Source: Pyrinomonadaceae bacterium (GTDB lineage Bacteria > Acidobacteriota > Blastocatellia > Pyrinomonadales > Pyrinomonadaceae). From it: DNA of 64,000 nt. Shown here piece by piece: positions 41,638 to 51,183 of the stretch. How positions within the stretch are numbered: position 1 is the stretch's first letter; every line of letters starts with the position of its first letter. The DNA lies in NCBI GenBank assembly GCA_046262835.1, contig JBHELZ010000004.1, positions 110,336 to 174,335 on the forward strand, written 5' to 3'. The translations under genes and the position numbers were made by a program. Under the pieces are notes generated by a model, which was not told the DNA's origin, ran no database searches, and worked only from the letters and a program-made list of their open reading frames with translations.

Positions 41638-43065
41638 ATGACAAAGCGCCCAACGATCATGAAATTCGGCGGCACGTCAGTTGAGGACGCTATCGCCATC
41701 CGGAACGTGGCGGCAATCGTGAAACTGGCAGTCAGCTCGCGCCCGGTCATTATCGTGTCGGCGATCCGCGGATTCACTAATTCATTGCTGGCCAGCGTAG
41801 GAAAAGCAATCGACGGCGATGCCCGGGCCGCCACGAAATCGCTTGACCCTGATTTTGATCGCCACTTGACGATTGCCAGACAACTGCTCGACAAGGATTC
41901 GTGCGCGGCATTCGTGGCGACAATTGGCGATGCGCGGAGCAAGATACGGCAATTGCACAAGATCATCGCCGCGCATCCGGTCACCAGTCCGCCGCTGCAG
42001 GATGAGATCGCGGCCTACGGCGAACAGCTATCTTCTCAATTGTTGACGGCGGCGCTGTTAGAACATGATGTGGCCGCGCGTCACGTCGATGCTCGTTGCT
42101 GTATCAAGACGGACGAAACGTATGGCGCAGCCACGCCGCAAGCAGTAACCGCGAACGCGATCACGGCTGAACTGGAACCTTTGCTTAACGTCGCAAAAAT
42201 TCCGGTGCTCGGAGGTTTTATTGGCAGCACCGCGCGAGGTGTCACCACCACACTTGGCCGTGGCGGATCTGATTACTCGGCCGCGATTATCGGGGCGGCC
42301 CTGAACGCGCGCGAGATTCAAATCTGGACGGACGTGAGCGGTGTGCTGACGGCTGATCCGCGAATCATTACTAATGCCCGGACAATCCCGGTTCTCTCTT
42401 ACGAGGAAGCGGCTGAGCTCGCTTACTTTGGCGCCAAAGTGCTGCATCCGAAGACAATTCAGCCGGCGATCGACAAGCGCATTTCCGTCCGTGTGTGTAA
42501 CTCGCGCGCGCCGCGCGAAGCTGGCACGCTGATAGTTTCAGAGTCAGCGGCCGCGCCGCAGACAATCAAAGCGATCGCGCACAAGACCGGAATCACGACG
42601 GTCCAGGTCACGTCGGCACGAATGCTCGGCGCCTATGGTTTCTTACGCGCCTTGTTCGAAGTATTTGATCGACACCGGACCGCCGTTGATGTGGTGACGA
42701 CTTCGGAAGTCAGTGTCTCGCTTTCGATCGATGACGCGACTGCCTTGCCCGAGCTGATTCCTGATCTCGAAGAGTTGGGAACAGTTGAAGTAGAAGAGGA
42801 TCGCACAATAATTTCGGTGGTCGGCGAGGGCTTGCGAAACACGCCCGGGATTGCGGCCCGAGTTTTCTCAGTGCTTAGCGAGATTAACGTTTCAATGATT
42901 TCAGTTGGCGCCTCCAGCGTAAATCTGACTTTTATGGTGGACGAAGCTCACGCCGAGGAAGCGATTCTGCGGCTGCATCGCGTGTGTTTTGAAGATGAAG
43001 CCGGCGGAAAAGGCTCCGGCTCCGGCGCTATCCCTTATAGTCGGGTTTCTGCGGTGCGGAGGTGA
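41638..43065 (+). CDS. lysC: aspartate kinase
   Basis: 475 aa. IMKFGGTSV, GRGGSDYSAA, WTDVSGVLTADPR and C-terminal ACT-like repeats. Confidence 0.9.
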   Translation: MTKRPTIMKFGGTSVEDAIAIRNVAAIVKLAVSSRPVIIVSAIRGFTNSLLASVGKAIDGDARAATKSLDPDFDRHLTIARQLLDKDSCAAFVATIGDARSKIRQLHKIIAAHPVTSPPLQDEIAAYGEQLSSQLLTAALLEHDVAARHVDARCCIKTDETYGAATPQAVTANAITAELEPLLNVAKIPVLGGFIGSTARGVTTTLGRGGSDYSAAIIGAALNAREIQIWTDVSGVLTADPRIITNARTIPVLSYEEAAELAYFGAKVLHPKTIQPAIDKRISVRVCNSRAPREAGTLIVSESAAAPQTIKAIAHKTGITTVQVTSARMLGAYGFLRALFEVFDRHRTAVDVVTTSEVSVSLSIDDATALPELIPDLEELGTVEVEEDRTIISVVGEGLRNTPGIAARVFSVLSEINVSMISVGASSVNLTFMVDEAHAEEAILRLHRVCFEDEAGGKGSGSGAIPYSRVSAVRR

Positions 43066-43066
43066 T

Positions 43067-44095
43067 GTGTTGGCGAGTCCGGTGGATGTCATTCGCCTCA
43101 CGCGCGAGCTGATCGATATTCCTTCCGTTACCGGCGAGGAGTTTCAGATTGGCACGTCGCTTGGCGAATTGCTGGTGCGACTCGGATACCACGTTGAGTT
43201 ACAGGACGTGGAAGACGAGAGAGCGAACATCATCGCCACGACGGAAGCCCGGCCACGGATTATGCTTTCGACGCACATGGACACCGTGCCCCCGTTCATC
43301 GCCTCAAGCGAAGACGACGACTCGATCTATGGACGAGGAGCTTGTGATGCGAAAGGAATAATCGCGACCCAAATTGCCGCCGCCGAACGGCTTCGCTCTG
43401 AAGGTATCAACGAAGTCGGGCTCCTCTTCACCGTTGATGAAGAAGTCACGAGTGGCGGCGCCAAATTAGCGAACGAACATCCGCTGGCAGAATCGTGCGA
43501 GTACCTGATCAATGGCGAGCCTACGGACAATCAACTGGCGATCGGGACCAGGGGATCACTGCAAGCAGTCGTGGCCACGAAAGGCCGCGCCGCGCATTCG
43601 GCTTACCCGGAAGCGGGCGAGTCGGCAATCGAGAAGCTGCTGGATGTGCTCGATGATATTCGCCACCTCAACTGGCCGGGGGACGAAGTCTTTGGCGAGA
43701 CCACCTGCAATATAGGAATCATCGCGGGAGGCACGCGGGCAAACGTGGTTCCTGATGCCGCAGAGGCGACGCTACAGCTTCGTCTTGCGGTCGAGTCGGC
43801 TGCGGTCAAACCTTTAATCGAGCAGACGATCGCGGGCCGCGCGCATATTGACTACCGTTCAGTTCATGATCCGGTGCGCCTGCTAACACTCGACGGCTTG
43901 GATCGCATGCTGGCGCGTTTTACGACTGATATTCCTTATCTGTCAAATTGGGGACAGCCGCTGCTGATTGGACCGGGATCGATTTTAGTCGCGCATACCG
44001 ATCATGAAAGAGTGGAGAAGAGTGAGCTGTTGAGTGCAGTGGATATCTATGTCGACCTTGTACGCAGACTGAGCTTACAGAACCGGCAACCATGA
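43067..44095 (+). CDS. M20 family metallopeptidase, probably succinyl-diaminopimelate desuccinylase (DapE/ArgE type)
   Basis: GTG at 43067 follows ggagg and the lysC stop. LIDIPSVTGEE, HMDTVPP, GRGACDAKG, NGEPT. Lies within the DAP cluster. Confidence 0.7.
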   Translation: MLASPVDVIRLTRELIDIPSVTGEEFQIGTSLGELLVRLGYHVELQDVEDERANIIATTEARPRIMLSTHMDTVPPFIASSEDDDSIYGRGACDAKGIIATQIAAAERLRSEGINEVGLLFTVDEEVTSGGAKLANEHPLAESCEYLINGEPTDNQLAIGTRGSLQAVVATKGRAAHSAYPEAGESAIEKLLDVLDDIRHLNWPGDEVFGETTCNIGIIAGGTRANVVPDAAEATLQLRLAVESAAVKPLIEQTIAGRAHIDYRSVHDPVRLLTLDGLDRMLARFTTDIPYLSNWGQPLLIGPGSILVAHTDHERVEKSELLSAVDIYVDLVRRLSLQNRQP

Positions 44096-44814
44096 AGATC
44101 GCGCTAATCGGCTATGGAGCGATGGGTCAACTAGTCGGCAGACTGGCGGCTGAGCAGGGCCATCAAATCACTTTGACGTTGGATGTTGAAGCTGCCGAGC
44201 GCAGCATCGACGACCTTGTCCAGGTTCTGCGCGCATGTGAGGTGGCAATCGATTTTTCCATCGCCGACGCGGTCCCGAAAGATGTGGCATCGTGTGCACG
44301 GGCCGGTGTGCCGCTGGTTGTCGGGACGACGGGGTGGCAAACGCGGCTCGAAGAAGTACGGCGGGTGGTCGAGCAGTACGATGGCGCTCTGATTTATGGC
44401 GCAAATTTCTCGATCGGCGTACAGCTCTTTTATCGGATCGCTGCGCACGCCGCCGAACTGTTTGGCAATGTCGACTCCTACGATCCATTTATCGAGGAAG
44501 CTCATCACAAACGGAAGCGCGATGCACCTTCAGGTACAGCGATGCAACTTCGCGGAATCGTTGGCGGAAAGCTTGAACGCGAGGTGCCCGTTTCTTCAAC
44601 ACGCGCCGGTTACATTCCCGGTACGCATCGACTTGGCTTTGACTCCGTCGCCGATGAGATCACAATCACCCATGAAGCTCGATCGCGCGAAGGCTTTGCG
44701 GCCGGCGCGCTGCTCGCCGCGGAGTGGATTGTGCGACGCAAGGGTGTCTACGAGTTTTCAGAAGTGTTCGATGAGATAATTAGGCACAGAGACGCAGAGA
44801 GACAGACAAAATGA
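44092..44814 (+). CDS. dapB: 4-hydroxy-tetrahydrodipicolinate reductase
   Basis: 240 aa. MKIALIGYGAMG, EAHHKRKRDAPSGTA. ATGA overlap with the preceding gene. Confidence 0.85.
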   Translation: MKIALIGYGAMGQLVGRLAAEQGHQITLTLDVEAAERSIDDLVQVLRACEVAIDFSIADAVPKDVASCARAGVPLVVGTTGWQTRLEEVRRVVEQYDGALIYGANFSIGVQLFYRIAAHAAELFGNVDSYDPFIEEAHHKRKRDAPSGTAMQLRGIVGGKLEREVPVSSTRAGYIPGTHRLGFDSVADEITITHEARSREGFAAGALLAAEWIVRRKGVYEFSEVFDEIIRHRDAERQTK

Positions 44815-44869
44815 AAGAGAGTTCAAGCGAAGCTTTTCGTCCCTGTGTCTCTCTGTCGCGCTTAGTGAG

Positions 44870-45799
44870 GTGGGACTTATGACGATGAAACTTGACTGGA
44901 TGCGCGGATGCGCGACGGCTTTGGTAACGCCATTCAAAGCCGATGGCGAGGTTGATGAGCAGGGCATGCGGCTGCTCGTCGATCGACAAATTAAGGGGGG
45001 CGTTCGTTTGCTCGTCCCCTGCGGCACGACCGGCGAAAGCGCAACGATGACTGAGGAAGAAGATGCGCGCGTGATTGGGTTGACGATAGAAGTCGCGCGC
45101 GAACGTGCCAAAGTTATAGCAGGCGCGGGCAGCAACGCGACTGCATCGGCGATTGAGTACTCAAAACGGGCCCGCGACCTGGGCGCCGATGCGGTGCTGC
45201 AAGTCGCGCCCTGGTACAACAAGCCCACCCAGGAAGGCTTGTACGCTCACTTTCGCGCCATCGCGGACGCTGTCCCGGAAATGCCAATCATGCTTTACAA
45301 CGTGCCGGGCCGCACTTCGTCGAACATCGCTGCCCAGACGACGCTGCGGCTCGCGCGCGATTGTGAAAATATCGTTGCTATCAAGGAAGCGTCAGGCAGT
45401 TTAACGCAGATCATGGAAATATTGCGCGAGCGGCCGGCGGGTTTTTCTGTCTTGTCGGGCGACGATGCGGTGACGTTGCCGCTAATTGCGCTGGGCGCAG
45501 AAGGATTAGTTAGCGTCGCGTCAAATGAAGTTCCGGATCATATGTCACGCATGACGAACCTCGCCCTGGAGGGAAACTGGGACGAGGCGCGCGCCTTGCA
45601 CTACCGTTTGTTGCCTTTGATGGAAGTGAACTTTATTGAGTCAAGTCCCGGGCCCGTCAAAGCGGCCATGGCTCTGATGGGATTGCTCGAAGAGAATTTT
45701 CGATTGCCGTTGGTGCCGGTTCAAAAAACCAGCCGCACGCGAATTCGCGCAGTGCTCGCCGAACTCGGCGTGCTGGAGACTGCACAAGCAGCTGCTTAA
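44870..45799 (+). CDS. dapA: 4-hydroxy-tetrahydrodipicolinate synthase
   Basis: ALVTPF, GTTGESATMT, YNVPGRT, AIKEASG. The start may be a few codons downstream (MKLDWM). Confidence 0.9.
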   Translation: MGLMTMKLDWMRGCATALVTPFKADGEVDEQGMRLLVDRQIKGGVRLLVPCGTTGESATMTEEEDARVIGLTIEVARERAKVIAGAGSNATASAIEYSKRARDLGADAVLQVAPWYNKPTQEGLYAHFRAIADAVPEMPIMLYNVPGRTSSNIAAQTTLRLARDCENIVAIKEASGSLTQIMEILRERPAGFSVLSGDDAVTLPLIALGAEGLVSVASNEVPDHMSRMTNLALEGNWDEARALHYRLLPLMEVNFIESSPGPVKAAMALMGLLEENFRLPLVPVQKTSRTRIRAVLAELGVLETAQAAA

Positions 45800-45927
45800 G
45801 AAGTCAGAACCGCCTGCGGGTAGCGGGTGGGCCTTATTTCTGTCTGATGGAACGATTGCAGTGTCGCTCAAGCGATGAGTATGTTCTGAACGGGCAGGGA
45901 GACGACCTGCCATACTTTGATTAAGAT

Positions 45928-46791
45928 ATGGCCCGCGCCCCCTCAGGCGGTTCTAACTTCATGCAAACGCAGATCGAAGAACTTGCATCACGCGATCCAC
46001 AGAATTACTCGGATCAGGACTTCGCAATCTTCAATGACTTCAAGGCTGCTCTGAACCGCGGTCAGATTCGCGCGGCCGAACGCGACGCTGGGGGAACGTG
46101 GCGCACGAACGCGTGGGTAAAGCGCGGCATTCTGCTCGGCTTCCGCATGGGATCAATTGTTGAAATGACGCCGCCGGGAGCGCCGTTGCAGTTTCTGGAC
46201 AAAGACACTTATCCAATTCATTCATTTGCGCCTGCAGATCGCGTGCGCATCGTCCCGGGAGGGTCGAGCATTCGCGACGGCGCTTACGTTGCGCCGGGTG
46301 TGGTCTGCATGCCACCCATGTTCGTCAATGCCGGCGCCTATGTAGACGAGGGAACGATGATAGACAGCCACGCGTTGGTCGGATCATGCGCTCAAATCGG
46401 AAAGCGCGTGCATCTCTCGGCGGCGGCGCAAATCGGCGGTGTCCTGGAGCCCGCGGGAGCAATCCCGGTGATTATCGAAGACGACGTGATTGTTGGCGGT
46501 AATTGCGGCGTTTATGAAGGCGCGATTGTGCGCGAACGCGCGGTGCTCGCCTCGGGGACGATTATTACGGGTTCGACTCCTGTTTTTGATCTTGTTCGCG
46601 AGACGATTTACCGACGCTCTGCGGATTCGCCCCTGGAAATCCCGGCCGGCGCTGTGGTCGTGCCGGGCGCGCGACGAATTCAAACCGAAAAGGGCCGTGA
46701 ATGGGGCCTATCGCTTTACGCTCCAGTGATCGTCAAGTACCGCGATGAAAAGACAGATGCGGCGACGCAATTGGAGGAGGCGCTGCGTTGA
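45928..46791 (+). CDS. dapD: 2,3,4,5-tetrahydropyridine-2,6-dicarboxylate N-succinyltransferase
   Basis: [43 protein letters not shown] closely parallels E. coli DapD (recalled sequence). The start may be ATG 45961. Confidence 0.85.
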
Positions 46792-46840
46792 ACTTTCGAA
46801 TACTTGACCGGAGTTTCTAATACCGCCTACTCTTTCAGAC

Positions 46841-47734
46841 TTGAAGAATATGGTTGCACCTTCGCTCCAACCAGCTCTGCCGTCTCCGCTTTCCACTTTT
46901 GATCGTCGGACTGCGCGACCGTTTCTGAAATGGGTGGGTGGCAAGCAACAACTCCTTACCCAGTTCGAGCCACTGTTTCCTGCCAAGTTTCGAAGATATT
47001 TTGAACCGTTCGCCGGTGGAGCGGCGGTTTTCTTTCACCTTTGGAATACGCGCCGGCTGCCCTCTGAAGCTTTTATATTTGACAATAATTCGGAACTCAT
47101 AAATGCGTACCTTGTAATAAGAGACAAAGTTGATGCACTTATTCTCGAGTTGTCGGTCCATCAAAAGCTTCATTCGAAGTCCTATTACTACAAGATTCGA
47201 GGGCTCGATCGAGATAAGACTCAACTTAGCGATGTACAAAGGGCGGCGCGTTCCGTTTATCTGAACCGGACTTGTTACAACGGATTATTTCGCGTGAATA
47301 GCAAGGGGCAATTTAATGTCCCGATGGGCAGCTACCTCAGCCCTCAAGTCTTGCTTGAGCCCGTTATAAGGGCGGCAAGCGGCGCACTGCAGGGCGTCAC
47401 GATTCAGCTAAGAGACTTTCATAGCATCCTTAGCCTTAGCCAGCCGGGCGATTTTTTTTATTTCGATCCTCCATATGATCCGCTAACGAAAACAGCAAGC
47501 TTTACCAGTTACACAGCTGAGAGTTTTAGCGAAGACGATCAACGGGAGCTTGCGAAGGTCGTAACTGCATTATCCGAACAAGGTGCCTACATCATGCTGA
47601 GCAACTCGAAGACTCCGCTTATTCTAGAATTGTATGAAAGGTTCCGCATCAATACTGTCCAAGCACGGCGTGCGGTGAATTCAGACGCAAATGGGAGGGG
47701 TCGCATTGAGGAGGTAGTGGTTTTGAATTACTAA
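46841..47734 (+). CDS. Dam-family (D12 class) N6-adenine DNA methyltransferase
   Basis: PFLKWVGGKQQLL, EPFAGGAAVFF (SAM motif), YLNRTCYNGLFRVNSKGQFNVP, FYFDPPY (DPPY catalytic motif). TTG at 46841 or ATG at 46850. Visibly AT-richer than its flanks. Confidence 0.85.
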   Translation: MKNMVAPSLQPALPSPLSTFDRRTARPFLKWVGGKQQLLTQFEPLFPAKFRRYFEPFAGGAAVFFHLWNTRRLPSEAFIFDNNSELINAYLVIRDKVDALILELSVHQKLHSKSYYYKIRGLDRDKTQLSDVQRAARSVYLNRTCYNGLFRVNSKGQFNVPMGSYLSPQVLLEPVIRAASGALQGVTIQLRDFHSILSLSQPGDFFYFDPPYDPLTKTASFTSYTAESFSEDDQRELAKVVTALSEQGAYIMLSNSKTPLILELYERFRINTVQARRAVNSDANGRGRIEEVVVLNY

Positions 47735-47743
47735 GGCGCGCAT

Positions 47744-48892
47744 ATGCCTGGATATATTTTCGGTCTGAATAGCCTTGACTCACTGCTCTTGTATACGCGG
47801 AATGGCGTTTATGCCACGAGGCTCTCCGAACCGAATGGCTCATGGAGGGGTCACCACGAAGGCACGTTCGCAGATTACGCCACCATGAAGGCCGGGGACA
47901 ATATTTATTTCTTTATTCAACGAAAAATCTACGGCCTTGGAAAGCTAATTAACGTCGGACCGGACTGTAAATACTTCAACTTTCCCGGCGCTAGCCTTCC
48001 TCATTCGTTCGCATACCAGTCGGTTAGACAAAACATTCTTTGGGATGAAGGCGCGATTAGTGTCAATCAACGCTGCGTCTGTTTTTTCGAGCCTGATCCC
48101 CATTTCTTCGCCTCCGGCGTTGATATGGATGACGTTTTGTCCTCGAACCCAGAGGCATTCAAGATGCTGCGAGTTTTTTGGAAGCTTTCCTTCATAAAAT
48201 TTGATGACCATGAGAATCAAGCCTTCCGCGACGTCCTTCTGAAACGAAACCAACGGGTGTTGGTATCAGTGGGACCCGAGGACGCTTTTGATTTCCGACC
48301 ATCTCGTAAAGGAATTCTCCAGCGGCTGACAACTCAACACTTATTTGTCGAGGGCATGACGAATGTTTTGTCGGCGTGTGCGGATGGCGACCAACTGAAG
48401 CACGAGATGGCAATCGAAACCGGTATTATTCATCAGCTTTCCGTTCGCGATGATCACACTTGTGATATTTTCGGCGACTGGGATTACATTTCACATCAAG
48501 TAGTCGCGTCACCCTTCAAGCCCGTCGATTACATGGACAAGATGGACTTGTTTGGCTATGCGTACGTTTCAGGTTTCAAGCCAACTAAAGGCCGCTTCCT
48601 TGTTTGCGAGATCAAGCGAGGCGTTGCGAGGCCCGAAGACATCAATCAATTGATGAAATATGTTGACTGGGTGAAGGATGAATACTGCCACGGAGACTAT
48701 TCAATGATTAGAGCATTCTTTGTTGCCCATGACTTCGAAGAAGGTACATTCGATCATAAGTTGGCAGTTGGGTTGCGGAAGTACACGGTTGGTGTGAGGC
48801 CGGCAAGGTCGCTCGAATGGGACGCCGTGAAACTCTTGAGATATACCTTTAATGGCTCTTCAAGTCGGATTGAATTCACTGTGCTAGCTTGA
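47744..48892 (+). CDS. putative nuclease: PUA/EVE-like N-terminal domain + NucS/DUF91-like PD-(D/E)XK C-terminal domain
   Basis: 382 aa, 9 nt after the methylase stop. C-terminus DKMDLFGYAY...GRFLVCEIKRGVARPEDINQLMKYVDWV fits D...E-x-K plus the Q..kY helix of NucS-like nucleases. N-terminus GYIFGLN...MKAGDNIYFFIQRKIYGLGKL resembles PUA-like (EVE/ASCH) folds, but that is the weaker call. Confidence 0.55.
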   Translation: MPGYIFGLNSLDSLLLYTRNGVYATRLSEPNGSWRGHHEGTFADYATMKAGDNIYFFIQRKIYGLGKLINVGPDCKYFNFPGASLPHSFAYQSVRQNILWDEGAISVNQRCVCFFEPDPHFFASGVDMDDVLSSNPEAFKMLRVFWKLSFIKFDDHENQAFRDVLLKRNQRVLVSVGPEDAFDFRPSRKGILQRLTTQHLFVEGMTNVLSACADGDQLKHEMAIETGIIHQLSVRDDHTCDIFGDWDYISHQVVASPFKPVDYMDKMDLFGYAYVSGFKPTKGRFLVCEIKRGVARPEDINQLMKYVDWVKDEYCHGDYSMIRAFFVAHDFEEGTFDHKLAVGLRKYTVGVRPARSLEWDAVKLLRYTFNGSSSRIEFTVLA

Positions 48893-48901
48893 ACCTTTGC
48901 G

Positions 48902-50050
48902 TTGAATAAATTCCAACCACCACCATTCCTGCGCGGCATTGAAAAGAGCATGATTCGAAAGATTTCGGATCGCGCGAAGCCCGGCAGCATCAGTCTTGGA
49001 CTCGGCGAACCTGATCTGCCGACGCCGGAAGTGATTATTCGTGAAGCCGTGCGGGTCATCCAGGAAGAGAAAAGCGGCTACACCCTGCAGGCCGGCATTC
49101 CGGCTTTGCGCGAACGAATTGCGGGCGATTACCCGCACATGAACCTGAATCTCGATGAAGTGATCGTCACTGCCGGATCGCAGGAGTCGCTTTACTTGAT
49201 TTTACGCACGTTAGTCGAGGCAGGCGACGAAGTGCTGATACCGGATCCAGGCTTTATTGCCTATCCGATGATCCTGAAAATGATCGGCGCGAAAATGGTC
49301 ACTTACCGGCTGCCCGCCAGGGATAATTTTAGTTTTGATCTCGAGGACTTCAGGAAACAGATTACTTCAAAGACTAAAGTCGTTATCTGTATCAGTCCTT
49401 CGAATCCCACCGGACGCGCGCTGTCAAACGACGAGTTGCAGGCGATGGCCGATGCCGTTACGGGCAGCGGCTCAAACGCTTTTATCGTCAGCGACGAGAT
49501 TTATCGCGAACTTTATTACACGCCGAAACGTCCGGCTTCGATCTCGGAATTCTATCCGCGCACAATCATTGTGAGCGGACTGTCCAAATCAATGCGCATG
49601 ACCGGTTGGCGAATTGGTTGGCTCGCCGGTGACCAGGCGGTAATGCGGGCGGCCCTGGTGCTGCATGGATATGTGGTCACATGTGCTTCCGGCATTTCCC
49701 AAAAAGCAGCCCTCGCCGCATGGACTGACGAAGCGGCGGCAGCACGCGTAGACTACCGCGCCATCTTTCACCGGCGGCGCGATCACCTGCTCAACTTATT
49801 GCGCGACGAATTAGGGTTAAGGTGCGTCGCGCCGGACGGCGCGTTCTACACCATGGTTGATGTAAGCCGCTATGGCGATGATTTAAAAGTTGCCGAAGCC
49901 GGCCTCGAGCAAGGCGTGGTTACCATACCTGCCTCGGCCTTTGGCGATCAGGGCAAAGGATTCGTGCGGATATCGTTTTGTGCTGATGAAGAGAAATTGA
50001 GCGAAGGCGTACGTCGATTGGGGCAGGCGCTCGAGTCGTTAAAGGCCTGA
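48902..50050 (+). CDS. class I PLP aminotransferase (aspartate/DapC-like)
   Basis: TTG start. ISLGLGEPDLPTP, PSNPTG, SGLSKSMRMTGWRIGW. Lies between the DAP genes and asd. Confidence 0.8.
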   Translation: MNKFQPPPFLRGIEKSMIRKISDRAKPGSISLGLGEPDLPTPEVIIREAVRVIQEEKSGYTLQAGIPALRERIAGDYPHMNLNLDEVIVTAGSQESLYLILRTLVEAGDEVLIPDPGFIAYPMILKMIGAKMVTYRLPARDNFSFDLEDFRKQITSKTKVVICISPSNPTGRALSNDELQAMADAVTGSGSNAFIVSDEIYRELYYTPKRPASISEFYPRTIIVSGLSKSMRMTGWRIGWLAGDQAVMRAALVLHGYVVTCASGISQKAALAAWTDEAAAARVDYRAIFHRRRDHLLNLLRDELGLRCVAPDGAFYTMVDVSRYGDDLKVAEAGLEQGVVTIPASAFGDQGKGFVRISFCADEEKLSEGVRRLGQALESLKA

Positions 50051-50121
50051 TTTTGTTTAGCGGCGAATGAGCCCGCCGAAATACGATGAAGAAAGGCGGG
50101 CGGTAGGCTGCCTCCAAGCAG

Positions 50122-51183
50122 ATGGTAAACAAGAGATTTCGTGTTGGCATTCTCGGAGCCACCGGCGTGGTGGGCCAGCGATTCATTCAACTGCTCGAAG
50201 ATCATCCCGAATTCGAAATAACCGCCCTCGCCGCATCCGATCGCTCGCAAGGAAAGCCCTTCGCGCACGCTTGTACCTGGCGTTTGCCTGGCGACATGCC
50301 TGAACGTGTCAAACAGATCGCCGTGCAAAGGCCGGAGCCCCCGCTGGATTGCGATCTTGTTTTTTCGAGTTTGCCGGGCGAGATAGCAAAAGGAGCGGAA
50401 GAAGAATTCGCGGCCGCCGGTTATCCCGTGATCAGCAATTCTTCTTCGCATCGAATGAGCGCGGACGTGCCTTTACTGATTCCCGAAGTAAACGCAGACC
50501 ACATAGCGCTAATCGACGTCCAGCGAAAGAACCGCGGCTTTGAACGCGGATTCATTGTCACCAATCCAAACTGTTCGGCAATCGTGATCGTCATGGCCCT
50601 GGCTCCGCTGCACGTGAAATTCGGCGTTACGTCCTGCGTAATCACCACGATGCAAGCTCTCTCCGGGGCCGGATATCCCGGAGTTGCCTCGCTGGACGCC
50701 ACCGACAATGTGATTCCATTTATCGAAGGCGAGGAAGAGAAGATTGAAGCGGAGACGTTGAAGCTGCTCGGCAGCTTTCAAAACGGCAGTATTGAAGAAC
50801 CAGACATGGCGGTCAGCGCACAATGTAATCGCGTGAATGTGAGCGACGGTCACATGGCATCAATCCGGGTGAAGCTCGCGCGAACGGCTTCCGCGACGGA
50901 AATTCGCGAAGTGCTGGCTTCATTCACCTCCGCGCCGCAGCAACTAAAACTTCACTCAGCGCCTGAAAGGCCAATCATAGTTAGAAGCGAAAATGACCGT
51001 CCTCAACCGCGGCTCGATCGCGACTCGGGAAATGGCATGAGTGTAACGGTCGGGCGCATTAACACGGACCCGGTGTTTGATTATCGATTCGTCGCCCTGG
51101 GCCACAACACCATTCGCGGTGCGGCAGGAGCGGCAATCCTTAATTCGGAATTGTTAGCGGCGAGGGGATACCTGGTGCAGTAA
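50122..51183 (+). CDS. asd: aspartate-semialdehyde dehydrogenase
   Basis: 353 aa. VGILGATGVVGQ, active-site NPNCSAI, SGAGY. Confidence 0.9.
   Translation: MVNKRFRVGILGATGVVGQRFIQLLEDHPEFEITALAASDRSQGKPFAHACTWRLPGDMPERVKQIAVQRPEPPLDCDLVFSSLPGEIAKGAEEEFAAAGYPVISNSSSHRMSADVPLLIPEVNADHIALIDVQRKNRGFERGFIVTNPNCSAIVIVMALAPLHVKFGVTSCVITTMQALSGAGYPGVASLDATDNVIPFIEGEEEKIEAETLKLLGSFQNGSIEEPDMAVSAQCNRVNVSDGHMASIRVKLARTASATEIREVLASFTSAPQQLKLHSAPERPIIVRSENDRPQPRLDRDSGNGMSVTVGRINTDPVFDYRFVALGHNTIRGAAGAAILNSELLAARGYLVQ

Follow-up and report, generated by a model that had tools for sequence, protein, structure and literature searches.

We analyzed a 64,000-nucleotide stretch of DNA from a Pyrinomonadaceae bacterium (Acidobacteriota; assembly GCA_046262835.1, contig JBHELZ010000004.1, positions 110,336 to 174,335 of the forward strand), hereafter the window, and in particular a gene in it, which we call X, that follows a gene for a Dam-family DNA methyltransferase, which we call M. 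Our preferred reading, to which we assign a probability of about 0.6, is that X belongs to a new family of restriction endonucleases that are blocked by methylation and probably act at GATC; on this reading, M and X make up a type II restriction-modification (R-M) system whose endonuclease represents a new family and is built in an unexpected way. A first-pass annotation made from the sequence alone had placed X at 47744-48892, and the open reading frame (ORF) that we find on the plus strand, with 382 codons and an ATG start, has exactly these limits and includes all the peptides quoted there. It had also noticed that a PUA-like reader domain is fused to a NucS-like PD-(D/E)XK nuclease and is nevertheless paired with an N6-methyladenine (m6A) methylase, an architecture that is indeed present and unusual; domains of this type are described in the literature on modification-dependent nucleases (PMC12707154, PMC6765204, PMC7641849).

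The identity of the partner methylase is clear. M scores 207.5 bits against Pfam PF02086 and 273.5 bits against the NCBIfam model TIGR00571 'dam' (cutoff 114.85), and its best solved relative is DpnM (PDB 2dpm; 253.6 bits, E = 1.9e-74), which places m6A at GATC sites in the DpnII system, whereas E. coli Dam scores only 132 bits. PADLOC models of type II methylases match M as well. For X itself, PADLOC returned only weak PDC-S02 matches to residues 282-318 and assigned no system, and no Pfam or NCBIfam model reached its threshold.

The C-terminal part of X nonetheless resembles NucS. Residues 251-335 give sub-threshold matches to Pfam NucS_C PF01939 (14.1 bits, cutoff 24) and NCBIfam NucS NF003270 (19.6 bits, cutoff 216), and a phmmer search matched NucS of P. 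abyssi (PDB 2vld) with E = 0.005, in an alignment that pairs E289, K291, Q302 and Y306 of X with E174, K176, Q187 and Y191 of NucS. We modeled X with AlphaFold2 on 39 homologs, obtaining a mean predicted local distance difference test score (pLDDT) of 90.9 and a predicted template-modeling (TM) score of 0.90, with the lowest confidence in a variable loop at about residues 170-200. Using Foldseek against the PDB, the C-terminal part of this model matched the NucS/EndoMS structures 2vld, 5gke and 5gkj with E-values of 3e-4 to 2e-3 (3e-4 to 9e-4 for 2vld and 5gke), and further matches were the nuclease domains of Can2 and Card1. Thus, the NucS-type nuclease fold and the E-x-K, Q and Y motif are present in X though the sequence thresholds for NucS are not reached, and the nuclease assignment made in the first-pass annotation gains support from the predicted fold.

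The N-terminal domain presents a similar situation. About residues 1-180 of the model matched the EVE protein 2hd9 (E = 9.4e-5, TM score on the target 0.63), five other EVE proteins (2p5d, 2gbs, 2ar1, 1zce and 2g2x), many YTH m6A-reader domains including that of YTHDF2 (TM 0.5-0.6) and the EVE-HNH restriction enzyme VcaM4I, and EVE- and ASCH-like proteins also matched X in the viral structure library BFVD. At the sequence level we detected no match of this domain to the EVE, YTH or ASCH family models, and a profile of 26 N-terminal domains found nothing meaningful in the PDB or in Pfam at E-values up to 10; its matches to a retinol-binding protein and CBM39 were set aside as noise. Accordingly, by curated sequence criteria X is a member of neither the EVE nor the NucS family, while the structural model places an EVE/YTH-type pseudo-barrel at its N-terminus. 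The PUA-like domain proposed earlier therefore stands as to its fold but not as to its length, which is about 180 residues rather than about 75.

The conservation pattern of the family is in line with an active enzyme. D268, E289, K291, Q302 and Y306 do not vary among 39 sequences and keep a conservation of at least 90% in the wider set of 69, and H220, E221, E225 and D265 are likewise invariant or at least 90% conserved among the 69 members, so that the aspartate, glutamate and lysine positions pointed out in the first-pass annotation hold across the family. Such conservation of the catalytic-motif residues is far beyond chance. H220, E221 and E225 lie on an invariant helix in the segment that comprises the linker and the first helices of the nuclease domain. 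Neither of the two clades of the family described below shows any variation in the catalytic motif, so that X is predicted to be an active nuclease wherever it occurs. The conserved core of the N-terminal domain comprises Y23, T25, W34, E39, D44, Y45, D52, Y55, F56, F57, R60, Y63, R110, F115, W146, K152 and E157; the invariant aromatic residues among these (Y23, W34, Y45, Y55, F56, F57 and W146) are compatible with a pocket for a base, although they prove nothing by themselves.

The genomic neighborhoods of X homologs provide the second line of evidence. Scanning one genome per species, we obtained 80 loci from many bacterial phyla and archaea, and classified their flanks using tblastn seeds within 4 kb on either side together with Pfam and NCBIfam, a procedure that methylases lying farther away or belonging to other classes would escape. 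A methylase adjoins X in about 74 of these 80 loci. In 22 of them, spread over at least 10 phyla, it is a D12-class methylase immediately upstream on the same strand, as in the window, usually with no other nuclease; a beta-class N6/N4 methylase also matches within the flanks of four of the 22. Two loci (L012 and L082) have a beta-class N6/N4 methylase only. The largest class (46 loci) combines a C5 methylase with a protein of about 466 residues containing two MutH domains, which passes the NCBIfam equivalog model restrict_Sau3AI (549 bits, cutoff 300) and is named a Sau3AI family type II restriction endonuclease by PGAP on a Clostridium plasmid. Cultured hosts of this class include Romboutsia lituseburensis DSM 797 and Tenacibaculum sp. 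Another two loci (L044, from Flagellimonas meishanensis NBU2970, and L066) have a C5 methylase and X without a MutH remnant within 4 kb. The remainder are two loci without a methylase on an uncut contig (L013 and L052) and six partial loci, in which the contig is cut next to X or only one partner gene is found (L019, L029, L053, L056, L057 and L073). In about 40 of 47 loci, X and the Sau3AI-like gene point in the same direction and are less than 100 bp apart; both gene orders occur, and the position of the methylase varies. Most members of the family thus reside in Sau3AI-type cassettes (GATC, 5-methylcytosine or 5mC) beside a second nuclease, which changes the picture drawn earlier from the window.

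Four additional metagenomic loci, three with a methylase adjoining X, include two D12-X pairs and two less usual arrangements. In one (L089, 2870-5947), a 67-residue controller-like helix-turn-helix (HTH) protein, a D12 methylase, the X homolog and a 259-residue beta-class N6/N4 methylase are encoded, a layout that presumably mirrors that of the DpnII system, X standing where the endonuclease would be. The second methylase of that system, DpnA, is of the beta class. In the other (L090, 2339-7496), a divergent X without an adjacent methylase lies between a DUF4365 gene plus an unannotated ORF of 396 residues and two BrxC/BrxD-family genes; it is among the few copies that fit a stand-alone habit in defense islands. 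Two other loci also deserve mention. L016 (301-4237), from a metagenome-assembled genome (MAG) of Mariniphaga sp., contains a D12 methylase, a 111-residue ORF, X, a single-domain MutH-like protein of 203 residues and a beta-class methylase, and is a possible intermediate between the Sau3AI/MutH-linked and the Dam-only forms. L086 (1-10903), on a plasmid of Haladaptatus sp. DYSN1, carries a haloarchaeal homolog of 495 residues that is 22% identical to X and lies between a trio of DEAD-box helicase, DUF1998 and phospholipase-D-like genes, which presumably resembles a DISARM system, and a gene of the MutH/Sau3AI family that is accompanied by two C5 methylases. This locus suggests that the family is also present in larger defense islands.

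The methylase and X appear to travel together. Identities to the window's M and X fall in parallel (76/74, 68/68, 62/63, 46/57 and 37/52%), indicating co-transfer of a pair that co-evolves. In a neighbor-joining tree, a simple distance tree, the D12-linked homologs group as a single derived clade that branches from within the C5/Sau3AI-linked diversity, and X of L012, with its beta-class methylase, sits inside the D12 clade. The methylase class has therefore been exchanged among D12, beta-class and C5 enzymes with the adjacency to X kept, and two-gene modules are found with methylases of the alpha, beta and C5 classes. The linkage is near-obligate, genuine orphans being rare (L013, L052 and L090).

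We then compared X between the groups linked to m6A and to 5mC methylases. Ninety positions reach a conservation of 90% or more in the one group as well as in the other, and no residue is specific to either at a level of 85%; under relaxed thresholds only Q109/N and Q170/E separate the two groups, both being conservative differences. That the same residues are conserved in both argues indirectly against a dependence of X on the mark of either partner. A domain that read m6A positively would kill Dam-linked hosts, and one that read 5mC positively would kill C5-linked hosts. The first-pass annotation had left three options: that the domain recognizes unmodified or differently modified DNA, that the methylase protects against some other activity, or that a new logic of self-recognition is at work. 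The near-constant adjacent methylase, the swaps of methylase class and the lack of residues that track the partner's chemistry favor the first of these, in that the domain would not read its partner's mark and the enzyme would be blocked by methylation. Each methylase class adjoining X serves known GATC systems, which makes GATC the most likely site; specifically, the D12 enzyme of the window is DpnM-like, and the C5 methylases accompany endonucleases of the Sau3AI family.

Taken together, X shows two features expected of a type II endonuclease, namely, an adjacent methylase whose linkage is conserved and a conserved nuclease catalytic motif. The same reasoning has been applied to BfiI and SauUSI, which share a nuclease but differ in their sensor, a neighboring methylase pointing to an unmodified target (PMC12191111). 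We propose that M and X form a compact type II cassette of foreign origin between dapD and the aminotransferase gene, in which M, judging from its similarity to DpnM, would mark host GATC sites as Gm6ATC. The NucS-like domain of X would supply catalysis through D268, E289 and K291, assisted by the helix carrying H220, E221 and E225, and by analogy with NucS, X would probably act as a homodimer on a palindromic site. The EVE/YTH-like domain would then serve in target recognition and not in positive reading of the host methyl mark. In the simplest model, it would probe a base of the unmethylated site, possibly flipped into the conserved aromatic and polar pocket, and m6A on the adenine, or 5mC on the cytosine of the neighboring base pair, would block productive binding or cleavage. 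In this proposal the folds of the two domains, the catalytic motif, the linkage to methylases and the exchanges of methylase class come from the analysis, whereas cleavage, the GATC site, the block by methylation and the role of the EVE-like pocket are predictions.

Several observations weigh against this proposal. Every characterized case we found of a PUA-superfamily domain (EVE, YTH, SRA or ASCH) fused to a nuclease is the sensor of a modification-dependent enzyme (PMC6765204, PMC7897488, PMC12707154), and END-Mag, in which a NucS-like nuclease is fused to another sensor, has been shown to be modification-dependent (PMC12191111). In 46 of the 80 loci X comes as a third, seemingly redundant gene beside a full R-M pair of the Sau3AI family; the proposal does not account for its tight linkage as a second nuclease in most Sau3AI-type cassettes. 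Moreover, another modification-dependent family also adjoins GATC-specific C5 methylase and Sau3AI-like genes (Lutz et al., PMC6765204), so that such a neighborhood need not mean a cognate relationship. A few copies (L013, L052 and L090) have no neighboring methylase at all. Finally, no other 4-bp palindrome is as depleted as GATC in the C5/Sau3AI-type loci, where its ratio of observed to expected counts (O/E) is 0.54, an indirect hint in favor of the proposed site, but GATC is only weakly avoided in Dam-linked loci (O/E 0.87) and not avoided in the window (468 observed, O/E 1.01); this pattern does not fix the site of the window's X. The same architecture, the structural match to VcaM4I (PMC7897488, PMC6765204), the END-Mag precedent, the position of X beside complete Sau3AI-type pairs and the comparable placement of the family of Lutz et al. 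would all suit a type IV enzyme that travels with GATC R-M genes and whose EVE-like domain reads a modification other than Gm6ATC or GAT5mC, for instance 5-hydroxymethylcytosine (5hmC), glucosyl-5hmC or another phage hypermodification, as a second line against phages that escape. A single foreign ligand shared by both clades would agree with the invariance of the putative pocket, and the methylase-less copy among BrxC/BrxD genes fits as well. We nevertheless consider this explanation unlikely. It does not account for the stable, co-evolving M-X cassettes without another nuclease (the 22 D12 loci in at least 10 phyla), for the same insertion site of M-X in three Acidobacteria (see below), for the replacement of the D12 methylase by a beta-class one at the same position or the C5-X pairs, or for the controller-like HTH gene and second methylase of L089, which are hallmarks of classical R-M systems; furthermore, type IV enzymes normally have no cognate methylase (PMC12191111), whereas X has a methylase beside it in nearly all loci. 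A further, tentative idea, which we consider rather improbable, is that the EVE/YTH-like domain is a negative reader that flips out a base of GATC and licenses cleavage only when its pocket finds no methyl group, a fold known for recognizing modifications thus having come to sense their absence. Alternatively, X may be dual-mode, cutting GATC sites in any state other than the host's. A dual-mode enzyme would explain why X is kept as a second nuclease beside Sau3AI-family enzymes.

Another reading is that X has no sequence-specific restriction of its own and serves GATC systems of the MutH/Sau3AI type as an accessory nuclease, processing or extending breaks at GATC or acting on single-stranded or hemimethylated intermediates, with the Dam-X pairs being remnants that have lost the primary endonuclease. 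The tight co-directional arrangement of X and the Sau3AI-like gene in either order suggests co-expression, the association extends to the 22%-identical haloarchaeal homolog of L086 and to the Dam-type cassette of L016 with its short MutH-like gene, and the Dam-linked clade lies inside the C5/Sau3AI-linked diversity. On the other hand, remnants would be expected to decay, yet M and X are intact, widely transferred and long retained as the dominant form of a whole clade, and C5-X pairs without any MutH remnant exist (L044 and L066), which makes this account improbable to us. A role in repair deserves still less credence, either as a MutH analog that nicks the unmethylated strand of hemimethylated GATC and whose YTH-like domain reads m6A, or as a NucS- or Vsr-like mismatch nuclease linked to the methylase. 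The NucS/EndoMS-like nuclease domain, the resemblance of the N-terminal domain to the m6A-reading YTH fold and the Dam-family partner speak for it. However, X scores below the NucS thresholds (19.6 vs 216 and 14.1 vs 24 bits), its N-terminal fold apparently differs from that of NucS, and no locus examined shows linkage to mutS or mutL. The patchy, horizontally transferred distribution across bacteria and archaea, the low GC content and the residence in mobile R-M cassettes are also at odds with such a role, and the same protein, showing no residue changes that would suggest adaptation, accompanies 5mC systems that lack m6A. Based on distribution and context, we rejected the readings of X as a NucS ortholog, a MutH analog and a Vsr-like enzyme. 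The methylation-blocked restriction endonuclease thus remains the reading that we prefer.

The family is large. A Pyrinomonadaceae (Acidobacteria) MAG encodes a protein that shares 100% identity with X and is annotated as 'hypothetical protein', and the homologs of X form 1361 clusters at 90% identity, none of them functionally named, although one UniRef entry among them is labeled 'DUF91 domain-containing'. An exhaustive profile search (E-values up to 1e-3) returned 477 representatives at 50% identity. Metagenomic fragments aside, almost all of the best 150 of these 477 are the same two-domain protein of about 370-470 residues, and hardly any alternative fusion of the N-terminal domain or of the nuclease occurs among them. 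Homologs are present in bacteria and archaea, including cultured strains of Tenacibaculum, Flavobacterium, the Bacillus group, Clostridium and Eubacterium. None was found in phage genomes; two were found on plasmids, both annotated as 'hypothetical protein' beside Sau3AI/MutH and dcm genes. Our literature search, which left REBASE aside, found neither a characterized homolog nor any account of the family. In two loci, X matches are shorter, lacking the first 54 residues (L080, 4162-5112) or the first 15 (L026, 4048-5139) with the cassette partners present; these may be decaying copies or have mis-called starts.

In the window, M and X form a two-gene insert of foreign composition within a lysine/diaminopimelate (DAP) cluster (Table 1). 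Their GC contents are 0.482 and 0.480, compared with 0.55-0.59 in the flanking genes, in keeping with a horizontally acquired module. The two genes are closely spaced, X beginning 9 bp past the stop codon of M, whose true start is possibly the ATG at 46850. The same insertion site between the dapD-like and aminotransferase genes is occupied in three Acidobacteria, i.e., the window, L005 and L074: dapD-like orthologs 84-86% identical to that of the window flank the cassette in the other two, and aminotransferase orthologs 80% identical lie directly downstream of X. M and X themselves are 68-76% identical to those of the window, while the housekeeping neighbors are mostly 74-86% identical (62% for dapB in L005). 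The M-X pair has therefore been retained for a long time, and such retention inside an essential operon is unusually long for an R-M-like cassette.

Table 1. Features of the M-X insert, its flanking genes and the parts of X, in window coordinates
Feature	Position	Strand	Basis
dapD-like tetrahydrodipicolinate N-succinyltransferase, left flank	45928..46791	+	translation and operon context, not family search
M, Dam-family (D12 class, alpha) N6-adenine DNA methyltransferase, DpnM-like	46841..47734	+	family and PDB matches
Gene X, predicted two-domain nuclease of 382 residues	47744..48892	+	ORF with ATG start
X, putative N-terminal EVE/YTH-like PUA-type pseudo-barrel, about residues 1-180	47744..48283	+	Foldseek, conservation
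X, predicted helical linker and first nuclease-domain helices, about residues 181-245	48284..48478	+	secondary structure, pLDDT
X, predicted C-terminal NucS/EndoMS-like PD-(D/E)XK nuclease core, about residues 246-382	48479..48889	+	phmmer, Foldseek
X, putative catalytic codon D268	48545-48547		
X, putative catalytic codon E289	48608-48610		
X, putative catalytic codon K291	48614-48616		
Aminotransferase of the lysine/DAP cluster, right flank	48902..50050	+	translation and operon context

The cluster extends over 41638-51183 on one strand and consists of genes for aspartate kinase, dapE-like, dapB, dapA, dapD, M, X, the aminotransferase and asd, with the lysine/DAP names assigned from translations and operon context. 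The aspartate-kinase ORF (41638-43065) and the dapE-like ORF (42989-44095, called with a TTG start) overlap by 77 bases, and the true start of the latter is probably further downstream. The whole window contains neither a tRNA gene nor a match to any Rfam family at gathering threshold, and CTAG is strongly under-represented in it (positions 1-64000; 24 observed vs 56 expected, O/E 0.43).

Should X prove to be the endonuclease in these cassettes, a new, widespread family of restriction enzymes would be defined that occurs in many phyla, with 477 clusters at 50% identity, and whose members are currently annotated as hypothetical. The working rule by which a fusion of a PUA-type domain (EVE, YTH or SRA) with a nuclease marks a modification-dependent enzyme would then no longer hold. 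Reviews and screens treat such domains as modification-dependent sensors (PMC12707154, PMC6765204, PMC7641849), and bioinformatic screens for type IV enzymes depend on this rule. Furthermore, most of the sampled GATC systems of the Sau3AI type carry X, suggesting that textbook two-gene systems are often three-component ones; we found no description of a third conserved gene in such systems in the literature search, REBASE again lying outside it. If X were a negative reader or a dual-mode enzyme, a PUA-superfamily sensor would for the first time be placed in a restriction system linked to a methylase, and a very common type of R-M system would gain a third component that has gone unrecognized. 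A GATC cutter with a different fold and a different sensitivity to methylation would also be a potentially useful reagent.

X shares features with four known groups of systems and differs from each of them. With the PUA-superfamily modification-dependent endonucleases (the EVE-HNH enzyme VcaM4I, MspJI and other SRA enzymes, and YTH-McrB) it has in common an N-terminal PUA-type fold joined to a nuclease. However, X lacks a sequence match to the EVE, YTH and ASCH models, its nuclease is PD-(D/E)XK rather than the HNH of VcaM4I, and it is found near-obligately beside a methylase of varying class, whereas those enzymes are solitary or lie in defense islands. Sau3AI-family R-M systems, consisting of a C5 methylase that yields GAT5mC and an endonuclease with two MutH domains, provide the host cassettes of more than half of the X loci (46 of 80); in these, X is a third, unannotated gene unrelated to MutH/Sau3AI, and the cassette of the window differs from them in lacking a Sau3AI-like gene and having an m6A methylase instead. 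The resemblance to DpnII/MboI-type systems (DpnM, DpnA and R.DpnII) lies in the DpnM-like methylase of the window (253.6 bits to 2dpm), in the beta-class methylase and controller-like HTH gene of L089, where X occupies what we take to be the endonuclease position, and in the probable logic of cutting unmethylated GATC with m6A as protection. Matching no Pfam family at threshold, X is not a member of the DpnII/MboI family, in which its EVE-like plus NucS-like architecture is not known. NucS/EndoMS, finally, shares with X the C-terminal nuclease fold, the E-x-K...Q...Y motif and the overall plan of an N-terminal beta-barrel domain followed by a RecB-like nuclease. Unlike NucS, X has no obvious clamp-binding motif at its C-terminus (...RIEFTVLA), as judged by inspection and not with a tool, and is tied to methylases and mobile cassettes and not to replication or repair genes. 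In the structure of EndoMS with DNA, the N-terminal barrel holds flipped bases while the C-terminal nuclease cuts in the manner of a restriction enzyme. The N-terminal fold of NucS is apparently different from EVE, but this way of holding flipped bases may, by analogy, be a mechanistic precedent for X.

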